A DNA stretch of 64,000 nt from Candidatus Nomurabacteria bacterium. GTDB lineage: Bacteria > Patescibacteriota > Minisyncoccia > Phycocordibacterales > UBA9973. The DNA lies in contig CP064958.1 of NCBI GenBank assembly GCA_016699085.1, forward strand, positions 540,619 through 604,618. The letters are read 5' to 3'. This document shows, piece after piece, positions 965 to 12,065 of this stretch. The notes beneath the pieces are model-generated. The model made no database searches. It was not told where the DNA came from and worked only from the letters and a program-made list of their open reading frames with translations. The translations under genes were made by a program, and so were the position numbers. The stretch's first letter is position 1. Each line of letters begins with the position of its first letter.

Positions 965-1140
965 AAGTGTAATGGGGTCTAAGCTATATCTGAACAAAGC
1001 ACCACAATATATGGTGCTTTGTTTGATGCTCCCTCTGGTGGACAAGTTCAGAACCCTCAATTGGATTCAAATTAAAAGAGATTTAGAGTTTTCTAAAATT
1101 TTTGAGGTATTCCCAATGGTAGCACTTCAGAAATCATAAT

Positions 1141-1178
1141 AAAAAAAAAGACCCGCCCAAGAGCAGGTCTTTTTAAAA
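1141..1178. terminator. bidirectional intrinsic terminator (A-run, GC hairpin agacc..ggtct, T-run)
   Basis: aaaaaaaaagacccgcccaagagcaggtctttttaaaag between convergent genes 554..964 and 1185..1457. Confidence 0.7.
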
Positions 1179-1184
1179 GTCGAT

Positions 1185-1457
1185 TTATAATTTTTCGGCA
1201 ACAACCTTACCTTTCTCGGTCAGATAATAGTACCCTTTGTTGTCTAATTCTCCGAATGAGAAACCAATGAGTTTCATATCCCAGAGGTTGCCACATGGTG
1301 TTCCTGTAAATATTTTTTCTCGTTCATCGAGAGTAATATCTACATCGCCTTTCTTTTTAGTTTCTTTAATAATTTTTTCTTCAGCACTTGAGATTTGAAT
1401 TGATAGTGTACTTTTTATTTGTTTGTGGAGGTTTTTTTCAATTATGATTGTTTTCAT
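1185..1457 (-). CDS. hypothetical protein (90 aa) driven by family-B promoter/leader
   Basis: ATG ORF; conserved leader hairpin ends about 8 nt upstream of the start. Confidence 0.5.
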   Translation of the reverse strand: MKTIIIEKNLHKQIKSTLSIQISSAEEKIIKETKKKGDVDITLDEREKIFTGTPCGNLWDMKLIGFSFGELDNKGYYYLTEKGKVVAEKL

Positions 1458-1571
1458 TTTTTACTTGATTGGTTTCCATAAACCCCAATAAAGGATCTCT
1501 GAAAACCAATCAAATACATGTGAAAGGGCAGTGCTGTTCATATAATACTTATAATATATGTATTTGTCAAA
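1458..1571 (-). promoter_or_regulatory. family-B module: sigma70-like promoter (TTGACA-N17-TATTAT, minus sense) plus conserved 5'-leader hairpin TTGATTGGTTTCC...GGAAACCAATCAA
   Basis: rc of tgtcaa at 1565-1570 and rc of ataata at 1542-1547; inverted repeat ttgattggtttcc / gaaaaccaatcaa at 1467-1513; same module at 4247-4369 and 10506-10627. Confidence 0.65.
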
Positions 1572-1575
1572 CCTT

Positions 1576-1605
1576 GCTCCGAACATGGGTTGACTAAGGA
1601 AACCG
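1576..1605 (+). repeat. family-A-like palindromic element (gctccgaac...ggaaaccg)
   Basis: Shares the CTCCGAAC core with repeats listed below. Confidence 0.5.
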
Positions 1606-1607
1606 AA

Positions 1608-2057
1608 TTAATACACAGTCGGAAACTCAGCAACTGATTCATATTGATACGATGGCGAGGTGTAGTCGGGGAGTGCCTCCTCAAAAGTTTTACGCAGTAC
1701 TAGGTAGGAGTTTTCACCTTTAGTTATCTTAAACCATTGTCCCAACCCAGCTGCATAGCACTGAATCTTGCTGGAACCCGCTACGATATCCGTATCTTCC
1801 TCTGAAGGAAGGATATCATTACAAGAACCATCGACCTCGTCAATTTCTTTTGAAAGCACCTTTCCATTGGCATTCATTGCATCCAAGAAAATTTTAGTAC
1901 CTGGTATACCATCAAGATTTAAAGCGCCTTCTTGATATCGCCATGTAAAAGATACAAGTGGAGCTTGTTTTATAGTAGTAGATTTATATCCCCCTATGCC
2001 TACATAGGTAGCTATAGCTAATATCACAATCACGAGAACTATTGCAATTCTTTTCAT
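1608..2057 (-). CDS. membrane-anchored hypothetical protein
   Basis: ORF with N-terminal TM; the track start at 2081 is TTG, so the ATG at 2057 is preferred. Confidence 0.45.
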   Translation of the reverse strand: MKRIAIVLVIVILAIATYVGIGGYKSTTIKQAPLVSFTWRYQEGALNLDGIPGTKIFLDAMNANGKVLSKEIDEVDGSCNDILPSEEDTDIVAGSSKIQCYAAGLGQWFKITKGENSYLVLRKTFEEALPDYTSPSYQYESVAEFPTVY

Positions 2058-2130
2058 AAAAAAAGTATAGCACAGGTTCAAATTCTTAGTTTTGGCAACA
2101 AAAAAACTTACAGACTAAGAGTACTTAATT

Positions 2131-2178
2131 GTCCGAACCTACTTGTTTATCCTTCAACAGGGGAGGATACTCGGAAAG
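2131..2178 (+). repeat. family-A palindromic element (gtccgaacc...ctcggaaag)
   Basis: Terminal inverted cores ccgaac / ctcgg around a variable centre, upstream of the arsR promoter. Confidence 0.55.
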
Positions 2179-2207
2179 TTTCCAAAACAAATTTAAAATA
2201 AAAGTCA

Positions 2208-2235
2208 TTGACTTTATAAAATACTTTGCTATAAT
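2208..2235 (+). promoter_or_regulatory. sigma70-like promoter TTGACT-N16-TATAAT for the ArsR-family gene
   Basis: ttgactttataaaatactttgctataat located about 25 nt upstream of ATG 2260. Confidence 0.6.
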
Positions 2236-2259
2236 AATTTCAAACAAAAACTAAGCGTT

Positions 2260-2577
2260 ATGGCAGAAAAAAACGGTTTGACCAATGTAAAATTGGTCGC
2301 ATCTATTTTACGTGCTCTCAATCATAAGTTGAGACAGAGCATGATGGAATTAATGGAGAATAAGCCGGGAATCACCGTCACAGAAATATACGCCAAGTTG
2401 CACTTGGAACAGTCTGTGGCATCACAACATCTTGCTATCCTGCGACAGGCGGGAATTGTAAAGATCGAACGAGACAAGAAAATGATTCGCTATTCTTTAA
2501 ACAAGGAGCGAATCAAAGAAATCGATTTGCTGCTTCAAAAAATTGTTGCAGGGCATAAGTCGATAACCAAAGCCTGA
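2260..2577 (+). CDS. ArsR/SmtB-family HTH transcriptional regulator
   Basis: Classic ArsR helix-turn-helix: TVTEIYAKLHLEQSVASQHLAILRQAGIV. Confidence 0.85.
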   Translation: MAEKNGLTNVKLVASILRALNHKLRQSMMELMENKPGITVTEIYAKLHLEQSVASQHLAILRQAGIVKIERDKKMIRYSLNKERIKEIDLLLQKIVAGHKSITKA

Positions 2578-2582
2578 GTCAA

Positions 2583-2612
2583 AAAAGCATCCCAAAATAC
2601 CGGGGTGCTTCT
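2583..2612 (+). terminator. intrinsic terminator after the ArsR gene
   Basis: gcatcccaaaataccggggtgc hairpin followed by ttcttctttt. Confidence 0.5.
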
Positions 2613-2620
2613 TCTTTTGT

Positions 2621-2676
2621 CAGACCTTCACCACATTCACAATGTTCACGTGCTCCGAATGTGAATGTTCGGAGAG
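2621..2676 (+). repeat. family-A element with a short palindromic core (ctccgaa tgtgaatg ttcggag)
   Basis: ccttcaccacattcacaatgttcac module followed by a perfect 7-bp inverted repeat. Confidence 0.65.
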
Positions 2677-2719
2677 TAATAATTGAAACTACTAGTTAAA
2701 CAATAACAGTAAATTACCT

Positions 2720-3169
2720 TTATTTCTCAGCTAACTGCTTTAATGTTTCTAGGGCTTTTGGCCACATACCGTTAAACATATCCTTGTACTCATCTTTCAC
2801 GTTAATGTCTATAATCAATTCAGTTCCACCATCTTTTTCCTTGAACGTGTAGTTTTCAAAATACAACTCATCAGGTCCATAGCTATTTTCCTTGCCCTGC
2901 ATGATTTCACCCGAGTATTTGATAGAAATAAATTCACCTGGTCTGGATTCTTGTATTTTTCCGATCATCCCTGAAATAGTGCCATTTTTTTCCTTGCCTA
3001 AAAACTTAATATCACTTCCTTCATCCCAACCACCTTCAACATATGATTGTGCTGTGGGGTCAGGATTAAAAACTGATGTCCATTGCTTGTATGTTTCTTC
3101 GCCTAGCATTGTGTCCCAAACTTTTTGCTGAGGAGCATTGATATCAATTGTATAGTGTAAATGTTCCAT
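2720..3169 (-). CDS. SRPBCC superfamily protein (AHSA1/Aha1-like START fold)
   Basis: About 150 aa with polyketide-cyclase/Aha1-like pattern (HYTIDINAPQQKVWD...); ArsR-SRPBCC pairs are a known association; track start 3214 is GTG and ATG 3169 is preferred. Confidence 0.65.
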   Translation of the reverse strand: MEHLHYTIDINAPQQKVWDTMLGEETYKQWTSVFNPDPTAQSYVEGGWDEGSDIKFLGKEKNGTISGMIGKIQESRPGEFISIKYSGEIMQGKENSYGPDELYFENYTFKEKDGGTELIIDINVKDEYKDMFNGMWPKALETLKQLAEK

Positions 3170-3237
3170 ATGTGTATTATTGATTATTCTAATAAAGTTA
3201 TTATAACAAAACACCTGCTTTTAACAGATGTGTCTTG

Positions 3238-3296
3238 TTGGCTCCGAACCTGCTCGCCCGACCTCTGGTGGGGAGGATAATCAGAAGAGTTTGGCA
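3238..3296 (+). repeat. family-A element (ggctccgaacc-tgctcgcccgacctctggtgggg-...)
   Basis: Same core and inner cccgacctctggyggg module as copies at 6371, 7471 and 10630. Confidence 0.65.
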
Positions 3297-3304
3297 AGGA
3301 AGTA

Positions 3305-3330
3305 AAAAAACCTGCTGGTGCAGGTTTTAA
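3305..3330 (-). terminator. intrinsic terminator for gene 3350..3805
   Basis: aaaaaaacctgctggtgcaggtttt. Confidence 0.6.
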
Positions 3331-3349
3331 GCTAATCTTTAGCTAATGG

Positions 3350-3805
3350 TTAGTGATAGAGTACTACTTGTGGATCTGCTTTCTCAATTGCGCTGAAGAT
3401 TATTGGAAGATGAGCTTTGTTCCAAAGTTTCTCTTCCAAAGAGAGTGCAATAGGGCCACTGTTCTGTATTTTGTTTAAGCAGCTCTGAAGTGTACTGATA
3501 TCTTCTATTTCATTCTCTGCATGCAATTTGTAACAGACAATGCCATGGTAAGTATGGTCACTCTTCTTTATTTCAATGATCTCACCAAGTTTTCTCTGTC
3601 TAAAATAATTAAACTCTGGAACTATTTTAGTTTTAACAAGTAATCCTGCAAAACTACTCACTCCTTTTTTTGCGTAAAATTGGCTGCTTAAATCGTTGTA
3701 TCCTGAGGGTGGGTACATATAGATACCATCTGTATTCAGGAGCACTGCAATGTCATGGCACCTAGTTGTGAGAATTGATTCGAGGGATACGTGTTTGAGT
3801 AGCAT
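3350..3805 (-). CDS. hypothetical protein (151 aa)
   Basis: ATG ORF with its own promoter; no recognisable motif. Confidence 0.45.
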   Translation of the reverse strand: MLLKHVSLESILTTRCHDIAVLLNTDGIYMYPPSGYNDLSSQFYAKKGVSSFAGLLVKTKIVPEFNYFRQRKLGEIIEIKKSDHTYHGIVCYKLHAENEIEDISTLQSCLNKIQNSGPIALSLEEKLWNKAHLPIIFSAIEKADPQVVLYH

Positions 3806-3849
3806 AGCTTTATTTATTGATTAGGAATGTGAAAAAACTATCTGGATAT

Positions 3850-3878
3850 ATACTACAATATCATTTTATTTAGTCAAC
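3850..3878 (-). promoter_or_regulatory. promoter TTGACT-N17-TAGTAT (minus sense) for gene 3350..3805
   Basis: rc of agtcaa at 3873-3878 and rc of atacta at 3850-3855. Confidence 0.55.
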
Positions 3879-3881
3879 TCA

Positions 3882-3913
3882 TGCTCCAAGCTTGGGAGGA
3901 TATTCGGAAGGGG
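3882..3913 (+). repeat. family-A element (gctccaagcttgggaggatattcggaagggg)
   Basis: Abuts the -35 box of the promoter above. Confidence 0.55.
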
Positions 3914-3967
3914 ATGGTAAAAATAAAAAGCCAACTAAATGAGTTGGCTTCTCTAATCATTTCCTTC

Positions 3968-4246
3968 TCAACAAAAAAGAAATTCCTTACACTTGTCTCT
4001 AACGGCTCTACAATGACTCATTTGTTTTAAGGTAGTGATAATTTCTAAATTTGGCTTATCTTTTTTGAGCAAAATGTTGACTGCGAAAAGAGCTTCTTCA
4101 TCTGAATATTCATTATTTTTAGCCTTAGCTATCTTATATAGTTCATCATCGGACATTTTTTTGATTTGCCTTTTCTTCTGTTCATTTTGTACTTCAGTGG
4201 CAAGATTTTTTAGCTCTTCATCAGTCATGGTTTTTGTTTCTTTCAT
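3968..4246 (-). CDS. hypothetical Lys/Glu-rich protein (92 aa), family-B leader
   Basis: Preferred start ATG at 4246 (MKETK...), because the upstream 66 nt are the conserved leader hairpin; the track ORF extends to 4312. Confidence 0.4.
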   Translation of the reverse strand: MKETKTMTDEELKNLATEVQNEQKKRQIKKMSDDELYKIAKAKNNEYSDEEALFAVNILLKKDKPNLEIITTLKQMSHCRAVRDKCKEFLFC

Positions 4247-4369
4247 TTTATTACGTATTGAATTGGTTCCCACAAAAGCCAGAAGCTTCTCTGGAAACCA
4301 ATCAAATACCATGTGAAAGGGCAGTGCTGTTCTCTACATTACTACGATATTGTTTTTTGTCAAACCTTC
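4247..4369 (-). promoter_or_regulatory. family-B promoter (TTGACA-N17-TAATGT) plus leader hairpin
   Basis: tttgtcaaa at 4355-4363; leader ttggttcc...ggaaaccaatcaa at 4263-4305. Confidence 0.55.
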
Positions 4370-4392
4370 CTTCGGACATGTCTCTTCCTGCC

Positions 4393-4505
4393 AGGTTCAC
4401 AACATACACAACGTTCACTTGACTCCGAACTTGGGACGATGCTCCCGATTTATTAAATTGTACTCAATTTGTTTAAATCGCAGTCCTGTTAAGGGTTCGG
4501 AAAGA
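4393..4505 (+). repeat. family-A long variant (ccttcacaacatacacaacgttcac + gactccgaac...gatttattaaattgtactcaatttgtttaaatcgcag...gggttcggaaag)
   Basis: Near-identical 110-nt copy at 8300-8411 and a mosaic copy at 6371-6497. Confidence 0.75.
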
Positions 4506-4544
4506 GTTTGATAGAAAATTAAAAAGACCAACACTCGGTTGGTC

Positions 4545-4868
4545 TTAAATCAGACTCGGATCATTCTTGAACAAAAAAGGTTTTCTCTTTTCAATAAATT
4601 GGATAATCAGTAAGCATAAGACTCCCATAAGTGCGTTATACCAAATACAATCTACTGAATAAGCGTTGCTTTTTATTTTGAAAAGCCAAACAAAAATTGC
4701 TGAAATAGAGGTGCCAAAGAAAAACTGACTAAGGAGCTCTAATCCCTTAACACGCTTTACTAATAGAGAGACAAGTATTGTTATGACAAATAACAATACT
4801 GTGAAATAAAACCAATGTTCATGACTGTCGTTGCGAAAATGGAAAAGTTCACAGAAGAAATTTTGCAC
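4545..4868 (-). CDS. small integral membrane protein (hypothetical)
   Basis: Two or three TM segments; GTG start. Confidence 0.4.
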   Translation of the reverse strand: MQNFFCELFHFRNDSHEHWFYFTVLLFVITILVSLLVKRVKGLELLSQFFFGTSISAIFVWLFKIKSNAYSVDCIWYNALMGVLCLLIIQFIEKRKPFLFKNDPSLI

Positions 4869-4936
4869 AGCTATTAAGTTTTATAGTGTTAAAGAACTGA
4901 TATTATAATAGCATAAAATATTACAATAGTCAACTA

Positions 4937-4963
4937 TGTTCCGAACGTGGATGTTCGGAAGGG
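4937..4963 (+). repeat. family-A short element (gttccgaacgtggatgttcggaaggg)
   Basis: Perfect inverted cores ttccgaac / gttcggaa next to the -35 box (rc TTGACT) of gene 4545..4868. Confidence 0.6.
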
Positions 4964-4986
4964 TCTATCAAGAAAAGTTAATCACT

Positions 4987-5793
4987 CTATAAAAAGTATT
5001 TATAGGTAAGGAGGATGATTCCGATAAGAGAAAGAGATACAGAAAGGACTTTTGCACTTTTATCTGGTAGCTTATTAAGTATTTTTTTTCCATAGTGTTG
5101 AGCTAATAGTAGGAAGGGGATAACGGTAACTACAAGGATAAGGTCTCTTGCATTAAGATGGTTATGAAATAGAATAATAATTCCAGTTACAAAAAACACT
5201 GAAAGTCCAAGAGTTGAGCCAATTGCTCGCACAGAGACTTCAGAAACTACTGTTCGCAAGTAATTGTTTCTAATATCTGCCCCAGGTAAACCTCCCCCTT
5301 GTAGAAAACCAGAAAATAGTGCAACCATACTAAGCTTTGCTCTGTGCACAGACTCAATTGGTGTTTGGTCTGTTGAAACGTGTCGAAGTGTCTTGTAGAT
5401 AAAATATATTGATGCAATTACAACGACTGCAGCTAAAAGTTTTGCACTCATATATGAAATAAGGGTACCACCTAAGATTGCTCCAATGATTGAGAAGGGC
5501 ATAAGAGCTTTTACAATATCCAGATTCCTCTTTTCAGTAAATGCTTCTTTTCTAAATAAATAGACTCGATGTATACCACTAAAGAAAAAAATAAATGCAC
5601 CAATCCCTATTGCTCTTTGGGGGTCTGTAAAGAACGCAGTTACAGGATTGATAATCATTGATCCAGAAGTTTGAACAACGATGTTTATAAATGTTGTAGC
5701 AATAAGCCAAATATATACAAAAAGATACTCAGAAAGAAAATCTGTTAGTATAGTCATCGGATCACTGTAACATAGTTTTCTGAGAGTGACCAT
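4987..5793 (-). CDS. TauE/SafE (DUF81) family membrane permease
   Basis: Polytopic membrane protein with the GxGGGxxxxP motif (FLQGGGLPGA). Confidence 0.6.
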   Translation of the reverse strand: MVTLRKLCYSDPMTILTDFLSEYLFVYIWLIATTFINIVVQTSGSMIINPVTAFFTDPQRAIGIGAFIFFFSGIHRVYLFRKEAFTEKRNLDIVKALMPFSIIGAILGGTLISYMSAKLLAAVVVIASIYFIYKTLRHVSTDQTPIESVHRAKLSMVALFSGFLQGGGLPGADIRNNYLRTVVSEVSVRAIGSTLGLSVFFVTGIIILFHNHLNARDLILVVTVIPFLLLAQHYGKKILNKLPDKSAKVLSVSLSLIGIILLTYKYFL

Positions 5794-5803
5794 GCAGCTC
5801 TAA

Positions 5804-5858
5804 AACCTTCACAACATACACAACGTTCACTTGCTCCGAACGTGGATGCTCGGAAGAG
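5804..5858 (+). repeat. family-A element (ccttcacaacatacacaacgttcac + gctccgaacgtggatgctcggaagag)
   Basis: Conserved module immediately upstream of ATG 5793. Confidence 0.7.
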
Positions 5859-5909
5859 TATTAGTCAAATAAAATAATAGATTTCGTATGATTATTAAAT
5901 GATTCAAAA

Positions 5910-5945
5910 ACAAAAAAGATACCTGCTCCTACAGATATCTTTTAC
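5910..5945 (-). terminator. intrinsic terminator for gene 5964..6296
   Basis: minus sense aaagatatctgtaggagcaggtatcttttttg. Confidence 0.6.
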
Positions 5946-5963
5946 ATACAAAGTCAGAAGATT

Positions 5964-6296
5964 TTAAACTCCAAGTAATTTTTTAGACTTCAAAATTCCT
6001 TCAGGGTCAAAGGGGGTGTTTAGTTGTCGAACAATCCTTGCTCTTGAAACTTCAAGCTCCACTTCCTTCTCAACTGAATGATTAAGGATTTCACTTTTTA
6101 AATCTGGCACATCGTTCTGCATTTCTATTACTGAAGTAAGTAATTCAAGAAATGTATCCTTGTCGATTGAATGATTTCCAAACTTCCCACAAATAAACCT
6201 AATCGCCCCTAATCGACTTTCGTAAAAATTAGATTGAATATTGTTGATAATTATAGCAACCAACAAGCCATTTTCCGAAATTAAAACGTTTTTCAT
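5964..6296 (-). CDS. hypothetical protein (110 aa)
   Basis: ATG ORF with promoter TTGACT-N16-TAGTAT (rc of 6330-6366). Confidence 0.4.
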   Translation of the reverse strand: MKNVLISENGLLVAIIINNIQSNFYESRLGAIRFICGKFGNHSIDKDTFLELLTSVIEMQNDVPDLKSEILNHSVEKEVELEVSRARIVRQLNTPFDPEGILKSKKLLGV

Positions 6297-6370
6297 ATAT
6301 ATGGGTTTATGTGAAAGTTTGACTTAACAATTTAAACCAATACTACGATATTATTCTATTTAGTCAATGG

Positions 6371-6497
6371 TGCTCCGAACTTGCCTGCCCGACCTCTGGC
6401 GGGGGATGATGCTCCCGATTTATTAGATTGTACTCAATTTGTTTAAATCGCAGTTGATTCAACAGGATCATACTAGGTACACGGAAGGGTTCGGAAA
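6371..6497 (+). repeat. family-A mosaic element (v2 head gctccgaacttgcctgcccgacctctggcggggg joined to v1 tail gatgctcccgatttatta...gggttcggaaaa)
   Basis: Chimeric structure shows the repeat units are modular. Confidence 0.75.
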
Positions 6498-6505
6498 ATT
6501 TTAAA

Positions 6506-7042
6506 TTAACTATTCGCTAGAAACCAAGTTATCTCTTCACTGACACTGGCAAACAAATCATCAAGTTCTTTACTTACACCTCTACACGCATTCGCAACTT
6601 TTTTTACACCTTCAAATCTTTCCAGCCTTTCCTCCTTACTCATTAGTGTATTCTTGGCATCTAATTCACCTCCAGAAATTTGATCCGCAATCTTTATCCG
6701 TCGTACCGACTCACTTTCTTTAGAAATTTTTTCTGCCTGTATTGCTTTTCTTTCACCCACAGGAAGATTTTTCCATTCAGGAGAATCAGTTAAACCATTC
6801 ACCATGGTTGCAATATGTTTACCAAATTCTCTCTCGATATCTTCTATCGTTACACCAGTATCTTCCACAGTGTCATGCAGCCAGGCTGCAGCAATCTCTT
6901 CTTCACTGCCTCCTGATAACTGTACTAGACTAGCAACTCTTTGAAGATGAAAATAATATGGTGTTTTGAATGCATCACTTTCGGTGTGATTTTTGTGAGC
7001 TTCTTTGGCAAACTGCTTTGCTTTTTCGATAAGTGTAGTCAT
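6506..7042 (-). CDS. stand-alone HD-domain (p)ppGpp hydrolase (small alarmone hydrolase, Mesh1/SpoT-hydrolase-like)
   Basis: HD motifs YYFHLQRVA...AAWLHDTVEDT...IEREFG are paralogous to the N-terminal hydrolase domain of the RelA/SpoT gene at 49063..50583. Confidence 0.7.
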   Translation of the reverse strand: MTTLIEKAKQFAKEAHKNHTESDAFKTPYYFHLQRVASLVQLSGGSEEEIAAAWLHDTVEDTGVTIEDIEREFGKHIATMVNGLTDSPEWKNLPVGERKAIQAEKISKESESVRRIKIADQISGGELDAKNTLMSKEERLERFEGVKKVANACRGVSKELDDLFASVSEEITWFLANS

Positions 7043-7059
7043 TAGTAGATTATAGAAAG

Positions 7060-7431
7060 TTAATTTCGATAGATCTCAATTCGTATTCCATCTGGGTCAT
7101 CAAGCCAGATGTATTCATTACCAAATTTGCCTAGTTTTATTTCACTGTGTTCTATATCAACTTCAGAAAGAAGTTTTTGAAATTGTTTTAGTTCATCTAT
7201 TGTTTTTACACCAAAGCCAATATGGTTCATGCCAATACTATCCTTATCGTACTCTCTATCCGAAACATCTTTTGGACTTAGCTTGAAAAACAATCTGGTC
7301 TCTCCAACCTTATACACGACCATGTGTTCATCATGAATAATCGGTTTAGGCAGGAATTTTGAGTAAAACTCTGCAGTCCTACTTATATCTCTAACTATTA
7401 AAGACATGTGATCAATAAATGCTGGTTGCAT
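7060..7431 (-). CDS. VOC (glyoxalase/bleomycin-resistance/dioxygenase) family protein
   Basis: IDHMSLIVRDI...NHIGFGV...IWLDDPDGIRIEI pattern. Confidence 0.75.
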   Translation of the reverse strand: MQPAFIDHMSLIVRDISRTAEFYSKFLPKPIIHDEHMVVYKVGETRLFFKLSPKDVSDREYDKDSIGMNHIGFGVKTIDELKQFQKLLSEVDIEHSEIKLGKFGNEYIWLDDPDGIRIEIYRN

Positions 7432-7470
7432 GGTTGGATTATAGCAGATTGAGAAAGCTTATCTCCTGCA

Positions 7471-7548
7471 AACCTTCACAACATACACAACGTTCACAGG
7501 CTGCGAACTTGCCTGCCCGTCCTCTGGCGGGGGATGATGTTCGGAAGA
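7471..7548 (+). repeat. family-A element (ccttcacaacatacacaacgttcac + gctgcgaacttgcctgcccgtcctctggcgggggatgatgttcggaagaa)
   Basis: Lies in the divergent promoter region between 7060..7431(-) and 7642..8244(+). Confidence 0.7.
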
Positions 7549-7641
7549 ATTTATTGATATAGTTATATTGACAATTTAATTTAAAAATGTTACTATTTCA
7601 CTAGTAAATAAGTTCATTAAATCACATAAACTAATAACATA

Positions 7642-8244
7642 ATGAAAAAAGCTATTCAACCTCAAGGGTTTGGTGAAGGACTAACTGTCCCGATGCCTAA
7701 AATCTGGGTATCAGATGATGACATGATTGACCAAAAGGTTGGAATTCACATGTGTGAATTCCATGAAGATTGTGATCCTGCTCCAGGATGGAAGAGAAAA
7801 GATGTAAGTATGACTGGGAATTGTAACTGTCACCTTAAAGGAACAACAGTGACAATAACTGGTCTGAAAGCAACCAGTCGTGCCACCTTTTATCGTTCCA
7901 CCTGTTACACGATTGCTGAAGATAAAAACCTTATTCATGAATCTGAATTTTCATCTGAAAAAGAAGACTCAGCAGGGGTTTCGGGCTATGTACTGGAAAA
8001 TGAAAAGGGTCAGTTACTTACTGCTGCGTATACATATACCTCAGCTATTAAACAGCCTCTGTTTGGATATGTATTCAATACTGGTCTTCTTAAGATCATG
8101 TTAAAAAACGGACTTGCAGTAGGTAATCCTATTAAGGCCTGGCCTGTAAAATGTAAAAACAATGAGGGTAGCAAAAGATCCTTAAATGGATCATCCCTCA
8201 CATGGCAGGAATTAGCAAATGTTATTTTAGTGAAAAAGAAATAA
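7642..8244 (+). CDS. hypothetical Cys/His-containing protein (200 aa)
   Basis: ATG ORF preceded by TTGACA-N17-TACTAT. Confidence 0.45.
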   Translation: MKKAIQPQGFGEGLTVPMPKIWVSDDDMIDQKVGIHMCEFHEDCDPAPGWKRKDVSMTGNCNCHLKGTTVTITGLKATSRATFYRSTCYTIAEDKNLIHESEFSSEKEDSAGVSGYVLENEKGQLLTAAYTYTSAIKQPLFGYVFNTGLLKIMLKNGLAVGNPIKAWPVKCKNNEGSKRSLNGSSLTWQELANVILVKKK

Positions 8245-8299
8245 TAAAGAAAAGATTGTTTAAGCCAAACCGAAAGGGGAGGCTTTTTCTTTTCCCCCA

Positions 8300-8411
8300 C
8301 ACCTTCACAACATACACAACGTTCACTTGACTCCGAACTTGGGACGATGCTCCCGATTTATTAAATTGTACTCAATTTGTTTAAATCGCAGTCCTGTTAA
8401 GGGTTCGGAAA
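8300..8411 (+). repeat. family-A long variant, near-identical to 4393-4505
   Basis: More than 100 nt identical; preceded by the ggctttttcttttcccc element. Confidence 0.8.
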
Positions 8412-8465
8412 TCCTTGTTTGACACGGTATTGAGTGTATAGTAGGTTTAGTAAAATTATACTGAC

Positions 8466-9137
8466 ATGAAATACATCGATTTAACTCATACACTTTCATC
8501 ACCTATCCCAAGCTGGGATGGAGATTGTTGCTTTACTGCTCCTATTGTTTACGATTATAAGGATTCAAAAGAACCCAATCTATTCCGTATCCATAGAATC
8601 GAGGCAAAAGCTGGTTGTGGTACGCATATGGACGCTCCTGCACACTGTATTCCTGGTGGGAAGACTATCGATACCCTCGATCTTGATACTCTCTTAGTTG
8701 ATTGTATTGTTATCGACATCTCTGAATCTGCACATGAAAAGTATGTTGCTGGTTTAGATTGTATTGAAACTTTTGAGAGGGAACACGGCAAAGTGCCAGT
8801 AGGAAGCTTCGTGATTTTCTATACTGGTTGGGACAAGTATTGGGATGATAAAGAAAAATATCGCAACAATCTAAACTTCCCAAGTATTAGTGAAGATGTT
8901 GCCAAGTTTCTTATTGAGAGAAATGTTTCTGGTGTTGGTATTGATACCTTGTCACCAGATGCAGTCGGTAATGATTTTCCAGTACACCGCGTAATGCTTG
9001 GGGCAGGAAAGTACATTGTTGAAAATGTTGCAAATGCAGGGATGTTGCCTGCAACTGGTGCAAAAATTTCTGTCATGCCAATAAAGATAAAAGATGGCAC
9101 AGAAGCACCAATACGACTTGTCGCTCAGATTCAGTAA
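8466..9137 (+). CDS. cyclase-family protein / kynurenine (aryl)formamidase-like
   Basis: HxGTHxDxPxH motif (GCGTHMDAPAHC) of PF04199. Confidence 0.75.
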   Translation: MKYIDLTHTLSSPIPSWDGDCCFTAPIVYDYKDSKEPNLFRIHRIEAKAGCGTHMDAPAHCIPGGKTIDTLDLDTLLVDCIVIDISESAHEKYVAGLDCIETFEREHGKVPVGSFVIFYTGWDKYWDDKEKYRNNLNFPSISEDVAKFLIERNVSGVGIDTLSPDAVGNDFPVHRVMLGAGKYIVENVANAGMLPATGAKISVMPIKIKDGTEAPIRLVAQIQ

Positions 9138-9184
9138 GGCTTCTTTTAAAAGATCTCTCAAATGGGATCTTTTTCTTTTCCCCA

Positions 9185-9242
9185 GACCTTCACCACATGC
9201 ACAACATTCACTAGCTCCGAACTTGGGATGTTTGGAGGGTGG
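9185..9242 (+). repeat. family-A element (ccttcaccacatgcacaacattcac + gctccgaacttgggatgtttggagggtgg)
   Basis: Diverged copy. Confidence 0.6.
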
Positions 9243-9298
9243 AGCATAATATTGACAATAGTGCATATATAGTATATAATATATAAAAATTTAAGAGT

Positions 9299-9604
9299 AT
9301 GAAAAAGCACTATTTCTTTGTCACAGCTGATTTCAAATTTAGGAAAAAATATGTTAACACACAATATGATTCCCATCCAACTGATGTGTGGAGGTTTGAT
9401 CAGAAAGAGACCTACATGATTGAGCAAAAAAAAGATGAAACGGATGAAATTTTCTTCCCAGCTCTAAAAAAGTATATTACCGATGCTTTGGATGCATATG
9501 CGGATTCGTGGCTTGCTCAAAGTAATTCAAAAGTACCGCAAGATAGTGGGTGGCAATGGGCAAAAGACAGTGTTAGCTTGATAACCTTTTCAAAGTTAAA
9601 CTAA
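9299..9604 (+). CDS. hypothetical protein (101 aa)
   Basis: ATG ORF. Confidence 0.4.
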   Translation: MKKHYFFVTADFKFRKKYVNTQYDSHPTDVWRFDQKETYMIEQKKDETDEIFFPALKKYITDALDAYADSWLAQSNSKVPQDSGWQWAKDSVSLITFSKLN

Positions 9605-9648
9605 CATCTGAGTGTTGTGAGAAGTCTTGCATTATAGGCAAGGCTTTT

Positions 9649-9679
9649 TCTTTTCCCCAGACCTTCACAACGTTCACTT
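9649..9679 (+). repeat. family-A head (ccccagaccttcacaacgttcacttg) truncated by the 176-bp repeat
   Basis: Element interrupted exactly where ggctcgggaggtaggg begins. Confidence 0.6.
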
Positions 9680-9855
9680 GGCTCGGGAGGTAGGGTGATC
9701 TTTCGTTACACGAACAGTAGACCTTTTTGAAATGTTCAGAATATATTCTTCACATTTAGCAAAAAGCTTTTCGATCCCTACACGAAAGCCAAGCAGTTGG
9801 CTTTCTCTCCCTCGCCACAAAAACTAAAAACCCCCGAAGGGGTCTAAAGTTTTTG
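9680..9855 (+). repeat. 176-bp direct repeat copy 1, starting with a 16-nt copy of the tRNA-Asn 3' end (ggctcgggaggtaggg)
   Basis: Copy 2 at 11657-11832 lies exactly 1977 bp away; contains hairpins gaaagccaagcagttggctttc and ccccgaagggg and an inverted tRNA T-arm fragment ttcgatccctac. Confidence 0.85.
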
Positions 9856-9886
9856 GGCTCCGAACTTGGGATGATGTTCGAATGAA
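9856..9886 (+). repeat. family-A core (gggctccgaacttgggatgatgttcgaatg) directly after repeat copy 1
   Basis: Sits in the position that the tRNA body occupies after copy 2. Confidence 0.55.
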
Positions 9887-9950
9887 TATAATGAGGAAAT
9901 AAAAAAGCCCTTTATATCACTAAATGAGAAAGGGCTTTAATAAGTGAAAA

Positions 9951-10505
9951 TCAAAGTTTATTTATTTCGTTTGCAATCTCTAAAAGTTTAGGATCGTTAG
10001 TTTTACAAAGAAAAAATAATTGCTCATAATTTTCTGGTGTAGTAGGATTCTGAGCTTTTAATTTTTCAAGGATTTTAGTTGTTAAATTAAACCACTCGGC
10101 CTCAAGTCTTTTTTCAAGAAGAGAGGCTTTTGCACCCCATCCCATTTTTGAAGAGTCTTCATAGACGTTTTTTATCAGTCTAACTTGATCTAGATCATCT
10201 TCTTTTTTGATATTTGCAAGAAGTTTATTAAACGCAATATACATTTGAAGACAGATGAGATCTTTTATTTCCTGAGAAGCTACACTAACCTTTTCGCCAC
10301 TATAACCAAATGCATTTACACCATAATAAAGACTTATGTAATGTTTTAGTTCTCTGCATTTTGCTAGCACAGCTTTAGTTTCTTCAAGATCCCATTCCCA
10401 AATGTGGATACTATTAGCTTTGCTAACTAGATTTTCAATTGGAGAATCAAGAATGATTTCCATCTTTGTTGCACCTTGTCCCTGTGCTTTTTTAAAGAGT
10501 TGCAT
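9951..10505 (-). CDS. hypothetical protein (184 aa), family-B leader
   Basis: Preferred start ATG 10505 (MQLFKK...) placed after the conserved leader; the track start 10568 is TTG. Confidence 0.45.
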   Translation of the reverse strand: MQLFKKAQGQGATKMEIILDSPIENLVSKANSIHIWEWDLEETKAVLAKCRELKHYISLYYGVNAFGYSGEKVSVASQEIKDLICLQMYIAFNKLLANIKKEDDLDQVRLIKNVYEDSSKMGWGAKASLLEKRLEAEWFNLTTKILEKLKAQNPTTPENYEQLFFLCKTNDPKLLEIANEINKL

Positions 10506-10627
10506 AATTTTGTGTTTATTTGATTGGTTTCCACAAAAGCCATTTATGCTCCTCTGAAAACCAATCAAATACTATGTGAAAGGGCCGTACTGCTTATACA
10601 ATACTGTAATATCTTAATTTGTCAAAT
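10506..10627 (-). promoter_or_regulatory. family-B promoter (rc tttgtcaaa) plus leader hairpin tttgattggtttcc...gaaaaccaatcaa
   Basis: Third copy of the module. Confidence 0.6.
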
Positions 10628-10629
10628 TT

Positions 10630-10680
10630 TGCTCCGAACTTGCTTGCCCGACCTCTGGCGGGGGATGATGTTCGGAAGAG
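10630..10680 (+). repeat. family-A element (gctccgaacttgcttgcccgacctctggcgggggatgatgttcggaagag)
   Basis: Same variant as at 6371 and 7495. Confidence 0.7.
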
Positions 10681-10705
10681 TTTAAAAAAATGTTAATGTA
10701 TACTC

Positions 10706-11599
10706 ATGAACTCTAACCTCGCCCCAGAAATATTTCGCAAACGCCTTATTATTGAAGGGAAATACACGGTTGAAATAAAAGAGGAGCAATTTGTCACTGA
10801 TTTCCTCTCTGATCTCTCTAGAGAGCTTGGAATGACAATTATTGCTGGCCCATTTATTTCGAGTGCCACAGGTAAGTCGGTACCCCTTCATGATGGTTAT
10901 GAAGGTTCACTTGTGTGGGCAGAATCAGGAGCAAACACATATATTTGGACACGTTCGAAATTCTGCACCGTTGATATTTATTCATGCAAGGAATTTGATT
11001 CAGAAAAAGCAATCAGTTTTATAAAAGAACGATTTGGCATTATAGAATTTTCATATTTTGAATTACCAGACCCTATGGCTTCAAAGCAAGATTCTCGAAT
11101 CGTATTACGACAAAGTGAAAATAAGGGGAACGGTGTTTTTGCCAATAAGGCAATACCTCAAGGAACAGTCGTTTCTTATGTGGATGGACAGATTCACTAC
11201 GCTCAAAAAGAATCTGAAGTATATGTGCATGCTTCAAATCACGCAGTTCCTTTTCATAAATATTTTTATAGAAATGGCTTCAACACAGACGCAGTCAAAT
11301 TAAATCACTCGTGTGAACCAAATTGCTATGTAAAAGATTTATTTTTCGTGACAACCATGCGAGATATACAAGCTGGGGAAGAACTTACATACTGTTATGG
11401 GCTTTTCTGTAACTCTGATTGGGAAAATCCCGAAGGTGTGTGTCATTGTGGTTCTAAAGAATGTCTTGGAAAAATTCTGCCATGGAGAGAGCTCCCTCAA
11501 GACTTTAAGATTAAATACTTTGACTACACCGCTGATTGGATTTTGTTTGATGAAATAAAGAATAAAGGACTTCTTGAAGAACTAAAGAAAAGCATTTAG
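10706..11599 (+). CDS. fusion protein: N-terminal pyruvoyl-type S-adenosylmethionine decarboxylase-like domain (SpeH/AdoMetDC fold) plus C-terminal SET-domain lysine methyltransferase with post-SET Cys cluster
   Basis: SET: GNGVFA, NHSCEPNC, GEELTYCYG, CHCGSKEC. N-terminal: LVWAESGANTYIWTRSKFCTVDIYSCKEFD aligns to the AdoMetDC VVIAESHLTIHTWPE...AVDVFTCGD pattern including the ES self-cleavage site. Confidence 0.75.
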   Translation: MNSNLAPEIFRKRLIIEGKYTVEIKEEQFVTDFLSDLSRELGMTIIAGPFISSATGKSVPLHDGYEGSLVWAESGANTYIWTRSKFCTVDIYSCKEFDSEKAISFIKERFGIIEFSYFELPDPMASKQDSRIVLRQSENKGNGVFANKAIPQGTVVSYVDGQIHYAQKESEVYVHASNHAVPFHKYFYRNGFNTDAVKLNHSCEPNCYVKDLFFVTTMRDIQAGEELTYCYGLFCNSDWENPEGVCHCGSKECLGKILPWRELPQDFKIKYFDYTADWILFDEIKNKGLLEELKKSI

Positions 11600-11656
11600 G
11601 TTAGAATTTCTAAAAAGGTAACAAAAAATCACCTTGTTTTGAAAGGTGATTTTTCT

Positions 11657-11832
11657 GGCTCGGGAGGTAGGGTGATCTTTCGTTACACGAACAGTAGACC
11701 TTTTTGAAATGTTCAGAATATATTCTTCACATTTAGCAAAAAGCTTTTCGATCCCTACACGAAAGCCAAGCAGTTGGCTTTCTCTCCCTCGCCACAAAAA
11801 CTAAAAACCCCCGAAGGGGTCTAAAGTTTTTG
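11657..11832 (+). repeat. 176-bp direct repeat copy 2, abutting tRNA-Asn
   Basis: Identical to 9680-9855 as far as I can read. Confidence 0.85.
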
Positions 11833-11834
11833 GG

Positions 11835-11906
11835 CTCGGGAGGTAGGGATCGAACCTACGACCAACCGCTTAACAGGCGGTCGCTCTACCGCTGAGCTAC
11901 TCCCGA
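11835..11906 (-). tRNA. tRNA-Asn (GTT)
   Basis: Cloverleaf read by hand: acceptor TCGGGAG/CTCCCGA, anticodon loop CTGTTAA, T-loop TTCGATC. Confidence 0.85.
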
Positions 11907-12065
11907 ATCTATTTAAAGAAGGCTGTTTCGGCATCCTCTGCCTTCTCTACTCTTTAACCACTGAATAATTTTCTAACATTCTCATATAAGAATGTGCAAT
12001 TATCCTAGCAAAATTAGGCATAAAAAGCAAAAACAGGCATATATGCCTGTTTACTGTTAATTTCC

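Follow-up and report, generated by a model that had tools for sequence, protein, structure and literature searches.

The 64-kb stretch of DNA analysed here (the window) belongs to an 808,221-bp contig from a metagenome-assembled genome (MAG) of Candidatus Nomurabacteria, and carries a 10.8-kb accessory island (1032–11837) that abuts a gene for tRNA-Asn. The island is composed of 16 cassettes of 0.45–1.1 kb, each in most cases a single gene that has a promoter and a terminator of its own, together with two copies of a 176-nt unit that resembles tRNA-Asn. A family of short palindromic repeats, the subject of this report, punctuates the array. On its left the island is bordered by a DUF305 gene (554–964) and on its right by tRNA-Asn, beyond which lie the core genes HPF, fmt, def and hisS. 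The open reading frames (ORFs) of the island are small and unrelated to each other; Pfam assigns them to ArsR, SRPBCC, TauE, HD, glyoxalase, cyclase and AdoMetDC-SET families, and several have no family. Strong promoter matches are located at the cassette edges, and terminator-like hairpins are abundant (26 versus 7.2 expected).

A unidirectional repeat family confined to one island

Fifteen cassette-type copies of (G)CTCCGAAC…GTTCGGAAG were counted by eye and by alignment. All have the same orientation and all are confined to positions 1576–10680; the window's other 52 kb contain none. The tetranucleotides equivalent to GCTC lie at 1576, 2130, 2652, 3241, 3883, 4369, 4422 and 4938 for the first eight copies and at 5833, 6372, 7500, 8330, 9214, 9857 and 10631 for the last seven; four further joints with an identical core are found at 1028, 9681, 11658 and 11834. 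The enrichment is strong: CTCCGAAC has 10 matches in the window against 0.82 expected, a number reached by 0 of 100 shuffles, and all fall within 1577–10639, nine on the + strand and the tenth being the right arm of a perfect palindrome. GTTCGGA has 21 matches against 4.8 expected, 18 of which are inside the repeat-bearing stretch. Allowing one mismatch, 13 left ends and 9 right ends are found in 1576–10678, all on the + strand, and matches outside this interval are isolated, scattered single ends. The 9.4 kb upstream of the window, read from L002, a contig 100% identical to the window, contain no copies, which brings the flanking DNA without copies to 61 kb (labels such as L001, L002 and L058 denote the related contigs and loci used in our comparisons). 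An earlier note on this DNA had described at least 14 copies in a single + orientation whatever the direction of the genes, and both statements hold. It had also raised the question of copies beyond the locus, which is answered for these 61 kb: there are none.

A 25-nt left module, CCTTCACAACATACACAACGTTCAC, is present at 2625, 4394, 5806, 7473, 8302 and 9187 and, in shortened form, at 9661, so that seven copies of the family have it when the shortened one is counted. Segments 4396–4503 and 8304–8411 are 100% identical over 108 nt, in agreement with the near-identity previously noticed for the copies at 4393 and 8300. The copy at 6372, which had been described as a chimera of two variants (at 6371), is indeed one: its inner module is 81–93% identical to those of the copies at 7500 and 10631, and its 52-nt module is 96% identical to those at 4433 and 8341. 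The copies had further been said to stand between every gene, which is not the case, as the HD and glyoxalase genes (6506–7431) occupy one cassette.

The joints share a GCTC core

Every joint has the same order: the right-hand end of one cassette (n), then GCTC, then the left-hand end of its successor (n+1). Because homology breakpoints between related arrays fall at GCTC (see below), the palindromic element is assigned to the right-hand cassette and the left module to the left-hand cassette, with GCTC as their meeting point. What the earlier note took for two modules of one element are the ends of two different cassettes.

Across 77 distinct simple sites the consensus is GCTCCGAACTTGGGAYGATGTTCGAAT, with GTTCGGAAG distally in the window lineage. 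The first three bases of the tetranucleotide, none of which was demanded by the search, are G in 67, C in 74 and T in 76 of the 77 sites; the final C was part of the search pattern. Conservation covers GCTC and about 27 nt to its right (CGAACTTGGGAYGATGTTCGAAT). To the left nothing is conserved, and the left arms vary: terminators, minus-strand promoters, ends of large serine recombinase (LSR) genes, the left module and other recurring modules are all found there.

The right arm, of about 30 nt, is similar to the part of the tRNA-Asn + strand that runs from the acceptor end to the T-loop inclusive, but is 4–5 bases longer. Aligned by inspection, the tRNA reads GCTC-acceptor-TAGGGA-TCGAACC and the cassette GCTC-CGAACTT-GGGAYGATG-TTCGAAT, in which the TTCGAA motif is shifted outward by 4–5 nt relative to the tRNA. 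Another type of arm, found on the LSR elements described below, has TGGAC-GAG-TTCAGAA at the matching distance from GCTC. On the opposite side, the distal motif of the left module, CTTCACAAC, and the CTAGAAC of the LSR end mirror the distal motif 18–19 nt to the left of GCTC, and left-module joints read, by inspection, CTTCACAAC-N18-GCTC-N15-GTTCGGAAG. Full sites (a left module with a right arm, or the predicted attP, the phage-type attachment site, of the LSR elements) are, by inspection, imperfect inverted repeats of ~56 bp with the G of GCTC at their centre. This is the layout of a serine-integrase attP, and on sequence grounds the left module appears to be the optional left arm of a full attP-like site. 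Only GCTC(C) is shared across the arm types, and tRNA-Asn is left complete. The crossover dinucleotide would lie in or beside GCTC, and is most likely GC or an adjacent pair.

The tRNA-Asn-like unit

The tRNA-Asn gene (anticodon GTT; 11831–11907, − strand) contributes the right-hand attachment arm through its 3′ end, which is GAGC in the sense direction and GCTC on the + strand. Beside it is the second copy of the 176-nt unit (11662–11837, − strand), which includes the terminator hairpin downstream of tRNA-Asn; the first copy is at 9685–9860 (− strand). With the flanking core, the two copies form a 182-nt exact direct repeat (9679–9860 and 11656–11837) whose first 15 nt repeat the 3′ end of tRNA-Asn (GCTCGGGAGGTAGGG) and whose last bases are GGGCTC. 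At 9681 a left module is joined to the unit (...cacttgGCTC/GGGAGG), at 9857 the unit is joined to a palindromic element (...tttttggGCTC/CGAAC) and at 11834 the unit is joined to tRNA-Asn itself; four kinds of arm therefore meet at one tetranucleotide.

Units starting with a copy of the local tRNA 3′ end adjoin tRNA-Asn in the window and in L070, L014, L009, L059 and L032, and one such unit is located beside tRNA-Arg in L058. Their positions are 11656–11795 and 9679–9818 in the window (− strand), 298–437 in L070, 1991–2117 in L014, 3646–3802 in L009 and ~654–820 in L059. A consensus fold obtained from five units comprises an acceptor-like stem matching the local tRNA, a 9-bp hairpin whose loop is conserved (AAACUGCUUU) and a T-stem-like helix around a variable insert of 60–110 nt, and 12 of its 20 predicted pairs show compensatory changes. 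Rfam gave no match to the unit (at the gathering threshold only tRNAs were found in the window, and an E-value scan returned chance-level matches). The unit may be a non-coding RNA of no known family or a decoy attachment site. A second target arm is supplied by its 3′ end, and the majority of cassettes are located on the far side of the unit. Insertion of a circle comprising cassettes U15 and U16 and the unit, at the unit–tRNA joint, would be expected to leave an exact duplication such as that seen in the window.

Homology between arrays breaks at GCTC

Comparisons between related arrays locate the cassette boundaries directly. L024 and L052 share a two-cassette block, 94–97% identical, that starts exactly at GCTC/CAAA and ends at tatttGCTC(C); past it, L024 continues with an LSR-type arm and L052 with a CGAAC arm. 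In L052 and L059, the tRNA-like unit is common from GCTC to GCTCCCC, after which one continues with an LSR-type arm and the other with tRNA-Asn. Homology between L045 and L069 begins at (G)CTC. Single cassettes are also found in new surroundings. U9 of the window (5837–6375) is 91.5% identical to L058 4447–4990 over 544 nt, and both neighbours are different, while the glyoxalase gene and its left module form an L058 cassette without the HD gene, the glyoxalase cassette keeping its inner-module arm in both arrays.

The arms themselves swap at GCTC with three partners, namely the tRNA-Asn 3′ end, the tRNA-Asn-like 176-nt unit and the 3′ end of the LSR gene. In L008, GCTC links the left module directly to tRNA-Asn, and the LSR gene 3′ end (...CCTAACTGGCTC) is joined to a CGAAC arm in L006, L037 and L025; in L006, what remains of the LSR is its C terminus, ending ...CCTAACTGGCTC and joined at GCTC to CGAACTTGGGATGATGTTCGAAGG. 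The left module is present in four species-representative genomes of GTDB (Nomurabacteria, Saccharibacteria or ‘uncultured bacterium’ MAGs). Searching metagenomes for the right-arm core yielded 60 contigs, many of which have 2–7 co-oriented sites. In all 11 of the metagenome contigs that hold tRNA-Asn, the sites are on the 3′ side of the tRNA with the same polarity as in the window. The interpretation of the repeats as site-specific recombination junctions, and thus as cassette boundaries, is well supported.

LSR elements occupy the tRNA-Asn joint in related genomes

Pfam scans detected no recombinase among the island ORFs or among 20 larger ORFs elsewhere in the 64-kb window, tBLASTN with a related LSR found no match in the window, and the gene calls of L002 include no recombinase in the 9.4 kb upstream. 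As the window is without an LSR, assignment of the enzyme rests on other genomes. There, an LSR family with 1,893 matches at E ≤ 1e-30 was identified. These proteins, of ~505 aa, contain Resolvase, Recombinase and Zn_ribbon_recom domains, and a PDB sequence search with the LSR gave a sole, weak match, to the TP901-1 catalytic domain (E = 4e-5). In five cases (L009, L010/L011, L072, L073 and L074), an intact LSR gene ends directly at GCTC and tRNA-Asn. L001, whose flanks are 90–97% identical to those of the window, has a different insert of 8.4 kb at the matching place, with a frameshifted LSR gene abutting tRNA-Asn.

An LSR-type arm, GCTC/CCTCTAGTGGACGAGTTCAGAAC..., marks the left end of the elements, 6.5–8.6 kb upstream, in L009, L072, L073 and L074. 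In addition to the LSR, the elements encode an HTH_17 protein, a restriction-modification (RM) pair and two or three genes of no known function. The order in L009 is cassettes, tRNA-like unit, intact LSR element and tRNA-Asn, and LSR remnants are found at sites in L006 and L037. Partial duplications of the tRNA were not found beside the LSR elements, as expected for a serine recombinase; a tyrosine integrase acting through a long identity segment is disfavoured by this.

The same type of arm is present at the left boundary of the window island. At this joint, J0, GCTC (1028–1031, + strand) is followed by a right arm of ~115 nt and of the LSR-element type (CCTCTGGTGGACAAGTTCAGAAC...), extending to 1146. 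Intact LSR elements have this module at their left end in L009, L072, L073 and L074, and it is further found in L024, L033 and L061. Because an LSR-element left-end arm stands at 1028, the left boundary of the island was set at 1032; homology with the relative L001 fades after about 1090.

The elements span 5081–11536 in L009, 211–6708 in L010, 3916–11542 in L072, 6897–11512 in L073 and 5354–11518 in L074. Their gene order is two ~370-aa proteins without a Pfam match and with a ~52-aa ORF between them, then the HTH_17 protein, a DNA methyltransferase, a restriction endonuclease and the LSR; the RM pair varies from element to element.

Two of the tRNA-Asn genes beside LSR elements are unusual. 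In L001 (18925–19000), the tRNA-Asn adjoining the decayed LSR is a hybrid, in which the 3′ 65 nt match exactly the tRNA of a different lineage, that of L009, but the 5′ acceptor strand is the local one. As a result its acceptor stem is unable to pair and ARAGORN makes no call. Homologous recombination inside the tRNA during acquisition of the element is the likely cause. The tRNA-Asn of L074 (11506–11700), which ARAGORN does not call either, has an interruption that follows the anticodon-loop region, consistent with the group I introns reported at position 35/36 of tRNA-Asn in Patescibacteria (PMC13011429).

Proposed growth of the array by site-specific recombination

We consider that the repeats are probably the attachment-site joints of a tandem array of recombinase-less cassettes, built by site-specific recombination at the 3′ end of tRNA-Asn, with an LSR as the likely enzyme. 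The recombinase would be the ~505-aa LSR of Patescibacteria carried on the 6.5–8.6-kb RM and HTH_17 elements at the tRNA-Asn joint, and would cut at a dinucleotide in or beside GCTC, most likely GC. Cassettes, presumably moving as circles, would be inserted successively, one after another, next to tRNA-Asn, and the tRNA-Asn-like unit downstream of the tRNA would act as a second landing pad with a second copy of the target arm. Every recombination product would again read ‘anything-GCTC-right arm’, and because this form is retained, insertion of cassettes, their excision one by one or as blocks, and their reshuffling in trans would all be possible.

Several points weigh against this proposal. 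Classical serine integrases use two half-sites per site and do not recombine like with like, and most cassette joints have no conserved left arm, their left arms being unrelated. A double-stranded half-site would be disrupted by insertions of 20–90 nt such as those that separate the proximal CGAAC from the distal GTTCGGAAG in some arms; intact arms bearing such insertions still form nested hairpins, which a folded-strand substrate fits better. The window and the 9.4 kb upstream contain neither an LSR gene nor any other recombinase. The predicted attP (the LSR end joined to the LSR-type arm) has 0 matches in viral contigs, and no excised circle was seen there. Compared with its counterpart in L058, U9 of the window differs more in the right arm than in the body of the cassette. 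Finally, the metagenome loci were picked by arm sequence, so that the arm conservation is partly circular.

The main alternative, which keeps the cassette boundaries and which we regard as unlikely, is that another recombinase acts on a folded single strand, convergently with attC, the hairpin and its 3′ GAGC tail mimicking the acceptor/T minihelix of tRNA-Asn. Conservation is one-armed, all of it at or to the right of GCTC, and arms tolerate self-complementary insertions of 20–90 nt. Folding, which the earlier note had proposed for all copies, partly agrees: intact copies with insertions are nested hairpins (z = −2.5 to −3.3), but decayed copies do not fold so. Inner modules come and go between arrays that are 95% identical (L052 2652 versus L024 4853), and on the − strand the arms of the window form a 7-bp stem followed by GC, like an acceptor stem, discriminator base and C74; the lack of an LSR in the window is also as this alternative would have it. 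However, only 5 bp are able to pair in the 77 sites, the next position being occupied by C-A, a mismatch, in 59 of them, and the palindrome shows no covariation beyond the 5 bp fixed by the search pattern, variants breaking the pairing rather than compensating for it. For these reasons, sequence recognition by an LSR is favoured over recognition of structure. Moreover, this GCTC is also the point where LSR gene ends meet cassette arms, the arms of LSR elements have GGAY-GAKG-TTC(A)GAA at an equal distance from GCTC, and no other recombinase gene is seen in the arrays or the LSR elements.

The array also calls to mind a chromosomal integron or a cluster of attC sites lacking integron integrases (CALIN), in which attC sites are recombined by the tyrosine integrase IntI. 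It is unidirectional, its cassettes are small (0.45–1.1 kb) and unrelated and bear imperfect palindromes with AAC...GTT ends, and glyoxalase, ArsR and SRPBCC are typical cargo of integron cassettes. The attC-like punctuation suggested earlier thus stands as far as cassette boundaries, a unidirectional array and unrelated cargo are concerned; the sites themselves are not attC sites, and we give an integron very little credence. No IntI or other tyrosine recombinase was found in the scanned ORFs of the 64 kb or in the upstream gene calls of L002. The arms TCCGAAC and GTTCGGA (GTTCGAA in most relatives) are unlike the R″ RYYYAAC and R′ GTTRRRY boxes, and the core site measures 24–30 nt instead of 55–140 nt, with a single stem of 5–7 bp (5 bp in most members) and without L″/L′ boxes or extrahelical bases. 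Crossover would be at GCTC, 5′ of the palindrome and outside the stem, not at G/TT; genes run in both directions with their own promoters; and the array is anchored at tRNA-Asn and LSR elements. Two further recombination schemes were rejected. The short 9-6-9 palindromes are not tyrosine-recombinase core sites, as the left palindrome arm travels with the right-hand cassette, and an IS200/IS605 element or a REP-associated tyrosine transposase (RAYT) of the HUH type is excluded by the presence of one hairpin per cassette rather than two and by LSR ends that join at the same core.

Generic intergenic repeats of the repetitive extragenic palindrome (REP), bacterial interspersed mosaic element (BIME), BOX or Correia kind, spread by a RAYT-like transposase or selected as mRNA-stabilizing or terminator hairpins, would likewise be short, modular, palindromic and intergenic, and nested insertions are reminiscent of BIME mosaics. 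This explanation, which takes up the REP, BOX and Correia comparison of the earlier note, is highly improbable given that the copies are restricted to one 10.8-kb island, with none in 61 kb of flanking DNA, have one orientation, and coincide with homology breakpoints between genomes and with cassette reassortment; in other genomes they are always on the 3′ side of tRNA-Asn, and the genes are served by separate T-run terminators. Least probable of all is the suggestion that the copies are operators of a shared regulator, for example the ArsR-family protein of U2, co-regulating the promoters of the island. A palindrome, CGAAC-N6-10-GTTCG, does stand 15–35 nt upstream of the −35 box of four + strand genes, but in the ten cassettes with − strand genes it is downstream of the gene 3′ end, and arrays elsewhere have sites without this regulator. 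The adjacency of copies to −35 boxes that had been pointed out is real and follows from the compactness of the cassettes: in + genes the −35 box comes after the right arm, and in − genes it abuts the next joint. A promoter-linked role is not supported, because the place of the copies relative to promoters is set by gene orientation alone and tracks the cassette boundary, not the promoter.

Relation to known cassette systems and islands

The closest analogues of the array appear to be the composite islands of staphylococcal cassette chromosome (SCC) elements, SCCmec and pseudo-SCC, the accretion of cis-mobilizable elements (CIMEs) and tycheposon islands. The SCC islands are inserted at rlmH (orfX) and mobilized by Ccr large serine recombinases. 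As in SCCmec, the recombinase associated with the array, here by reference to related genomes, is probably an LSR; a conserved housekeeping gene receives the insertions at its 3′ end and stays intact, with direct repeats that mimic the target end; recombinase-less elements are arranged in tandem and in one orientation beside recombinase-bearing ones; and only the gene-side arm of the site is well conserved. Unlike in SCCmec, the target is a tRNA gene together with a tRNA-like decoy unit, the host is a bacterium of the candidate phyla radiation (CPR), the LSR is only distantly related to characterized LSRs, and the units are single-gene cassettes of 0.45–1.1 kb, up to 16 or more per array, in place of elements of 3–60 kb.

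In Streptococcus, accretion of CIMEs with integrative and conjugative elements follows a similar course, as does that of tycheposons: integration is at the 3′ ends of tRNA or housekeeping genes, each new insertion displaces older elements into the island, and recombinase-less remnants stay behind between att or partial-tRNA repeats. A minority of the tycheposon islands of Prochlorococcus use large serine recombinases (bioRxiv 10.1101/2020.12.28.424599). The features of an accretion island are found in our loci: recombinase-less units are located between direct att repeats at a tRNA 3′ end, an LSR unit is part of the L009 array, and the same unit occurs in different contexts with its boundaries at the att core. 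CIME and tycheposon elements differ in being multi-kb, usually with tyrosine integrases and replication modules, their remnants being decay products. The cassettes described here are instead uniform and single-gene, without integrase or replication module, and their repeat is a diverged mimic of ~30 nt, not a partial copy of the tRNA; only the 176-nt unit has 15 identical nt.

The sites can also be set beside those of serine integrases such as phiC31, Bxb1, A118/LI and TP901-1. Full sites are imperfect inverted repeats of ~56 bp, there is no target duplication past the short core, and in related genomes the integrase gene is directly beside the site. For LI integrase, motifs are reportedly offset between attP and attB, and the 4–5-bp outward shift of TTCGAA resembles that offset. 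The differences are that classical serine integrases strictly recombine attP with attB, whereas the sites here seem interchangeable, mostly have one recognizable arm, and tolerate large insertions inside it.

With integrons and CALINs the array shares small unrelated cassettes in one direction, imperfect palindromic sites of variable length, a site that belongs almost wholly to one cassette, and reassortment between arrays. It differs in that the site is at the start of the cassette, not its end, relative to array polarity, and in that the anchor is a tRNA gene and not attI; cassettes have their own promoters and terminators and both gene orientations, IntI is absent, and the crossover would be outside the stem. 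The system would thus be integron-like in outcome and SCC- or CIME-like in mechanism. A more ambitious version, which we put forward tentatively as slightly short of an even chance, is that of an integron analogue run by an LSR, with one-armed sites of ~30 nt that mimic tRNA-Asn, self-expressed single-gene cassettes that are captured, stacked and reshuffled at tRNA-Asn and at a dedicated tRNA-like decoy RNA gene beside it, and the RM–LSR element as mobile platform, serving as a major route of gene gain in these ultra-small genomes.

CPR bacteria (Patescibacteria) have tiny genomes with few recognized mobile elements, and the route by which they gain accessory genes is an open question. We found no description of this system in the literature on Patescibacteria, serine recombinases, tRNA-Asn, integrons and genomic islands, where tycheposons came nearest to it in concept. 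If it is a widespread, tRNA-Asn-anchored cassette system, as 60 contigs with the arm and more than 1,800 related LSRs may indicate, it would offer a concrete mechanism of gene gain, and would represent a second, independently evolved architecture of gene-cassette arrays besides integrons, based on a serine and not a tyrosine recombinase. The short, defined sites and compact LSR are of possible interest to genome engineers, and the arrays would amount to a catalogue of self-contained expression units (promoter, gene and terminator) from uncultured bacteria.

Cassettes of the window array

Cassette U0 (1032–1579, − strand) contains a 90-aa gene (1185–1457) with a conserved hairpin leader and a promoter that abuts joint J1 (1576–1624, + strand), which reads GCTC/CGAAC... 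and has a decayed right arm. U1 (1580–2133, −) encodes a 157-aa protein (1608–2081), of which L069 has an 87% identical relative, and is followed by the decayed J2 (2130–2175). U2 (2134–2655, +) is made up of a promoter, the ArsR-family gene (2260–2577), a terminator and a left module (2625–2649). The next three cassettes are on the − strand: U3 (2656–3244) has the short arm CGAATGTGAATGTTCGGAG and an SRPBCC/AHSA1 gene (2720–3214), U4 (3245–3886) an arm with the inner hairpin module and a decayed distal motif and a 151-aa gene, and U5 (3887–4372) a small gene (3968–4312) with a hairpin leader. U6 (4373–4425, +) is an empty unit of 53 nt between two joints, consisting of a decayed arm and a left module only.

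Four − strand cassettes follow. U7 (4426–4941) has a 76-nt arm with the 52-nt nested hairpin module and a gene for a 107-aa membrane protein; U8 (4942–5836) has a TauE/SafE exporter gene and ends with a left module; U9 (5837–6375), the cassette with a counterpart in L058, has a 110-aa gene; and U10 (6376–7503) combines the chimeric arm, 120 nt long, with the HD-domain and glyoxalase genes and a left module at its end. On the + strand, U11 (7504–8333) comprises an arm with the inner module, a promoter, a 200-aa gene, a terminator and a left module; U12 (8334–9217) comprises an arm identical to that of U7, a cyclase-family gene, a terminator and a left module; and U13 (9218–9684) comprises a 101-aa gene and the shortened left module joined to the tRNA-like unit. 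Beyond that unit, U15 (9861–10634, −) has the canonical arm CGAACTTGGGATGATGTTCGAATG and a 205-aa gene with a hairpin leader, and U16 (10635–11661, +) has an arm with the inner module, an AdoMet-decarboxylase/SET-domain gene and a terminator. When the proteins of the cyclase and glyoxalase cassettes were looked up by exact sequence for other contexts, the only contigs retrieved were short ones of the same sample that break off at the repeats.

Inserted modules and a shared leader

The 52-nt module is located at 4433–4484, 6403–6454 and 8341–8392, and the inner hairpin module at 3255–3273, 6386–6404, 7514–7532 and 10645–10663. One arm insertion is flanked by the direct repeat GCCTGC. The self-complementary arm modules may be tiny insertion elements that target the arm.

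Unrelated small cassette genes have in common a promoter and leader module of ~100 nt, in which a conserved hairpin, TTGATTGGTTTCC...GGAAACCAATCAA, ends just before the start codon. The module is present at 1455–1545, 4250–4338 and 10510–10600 (− strand) in the window and at 8915–9005 in L001, and also in L029, L031, L033 and L042. It has no Rfam match, and an E-value scan of the joint and leader region gave chance-level matches only. Four pairs of the hairpin show compensatory changes, and the module could be a portable regulatory leader.

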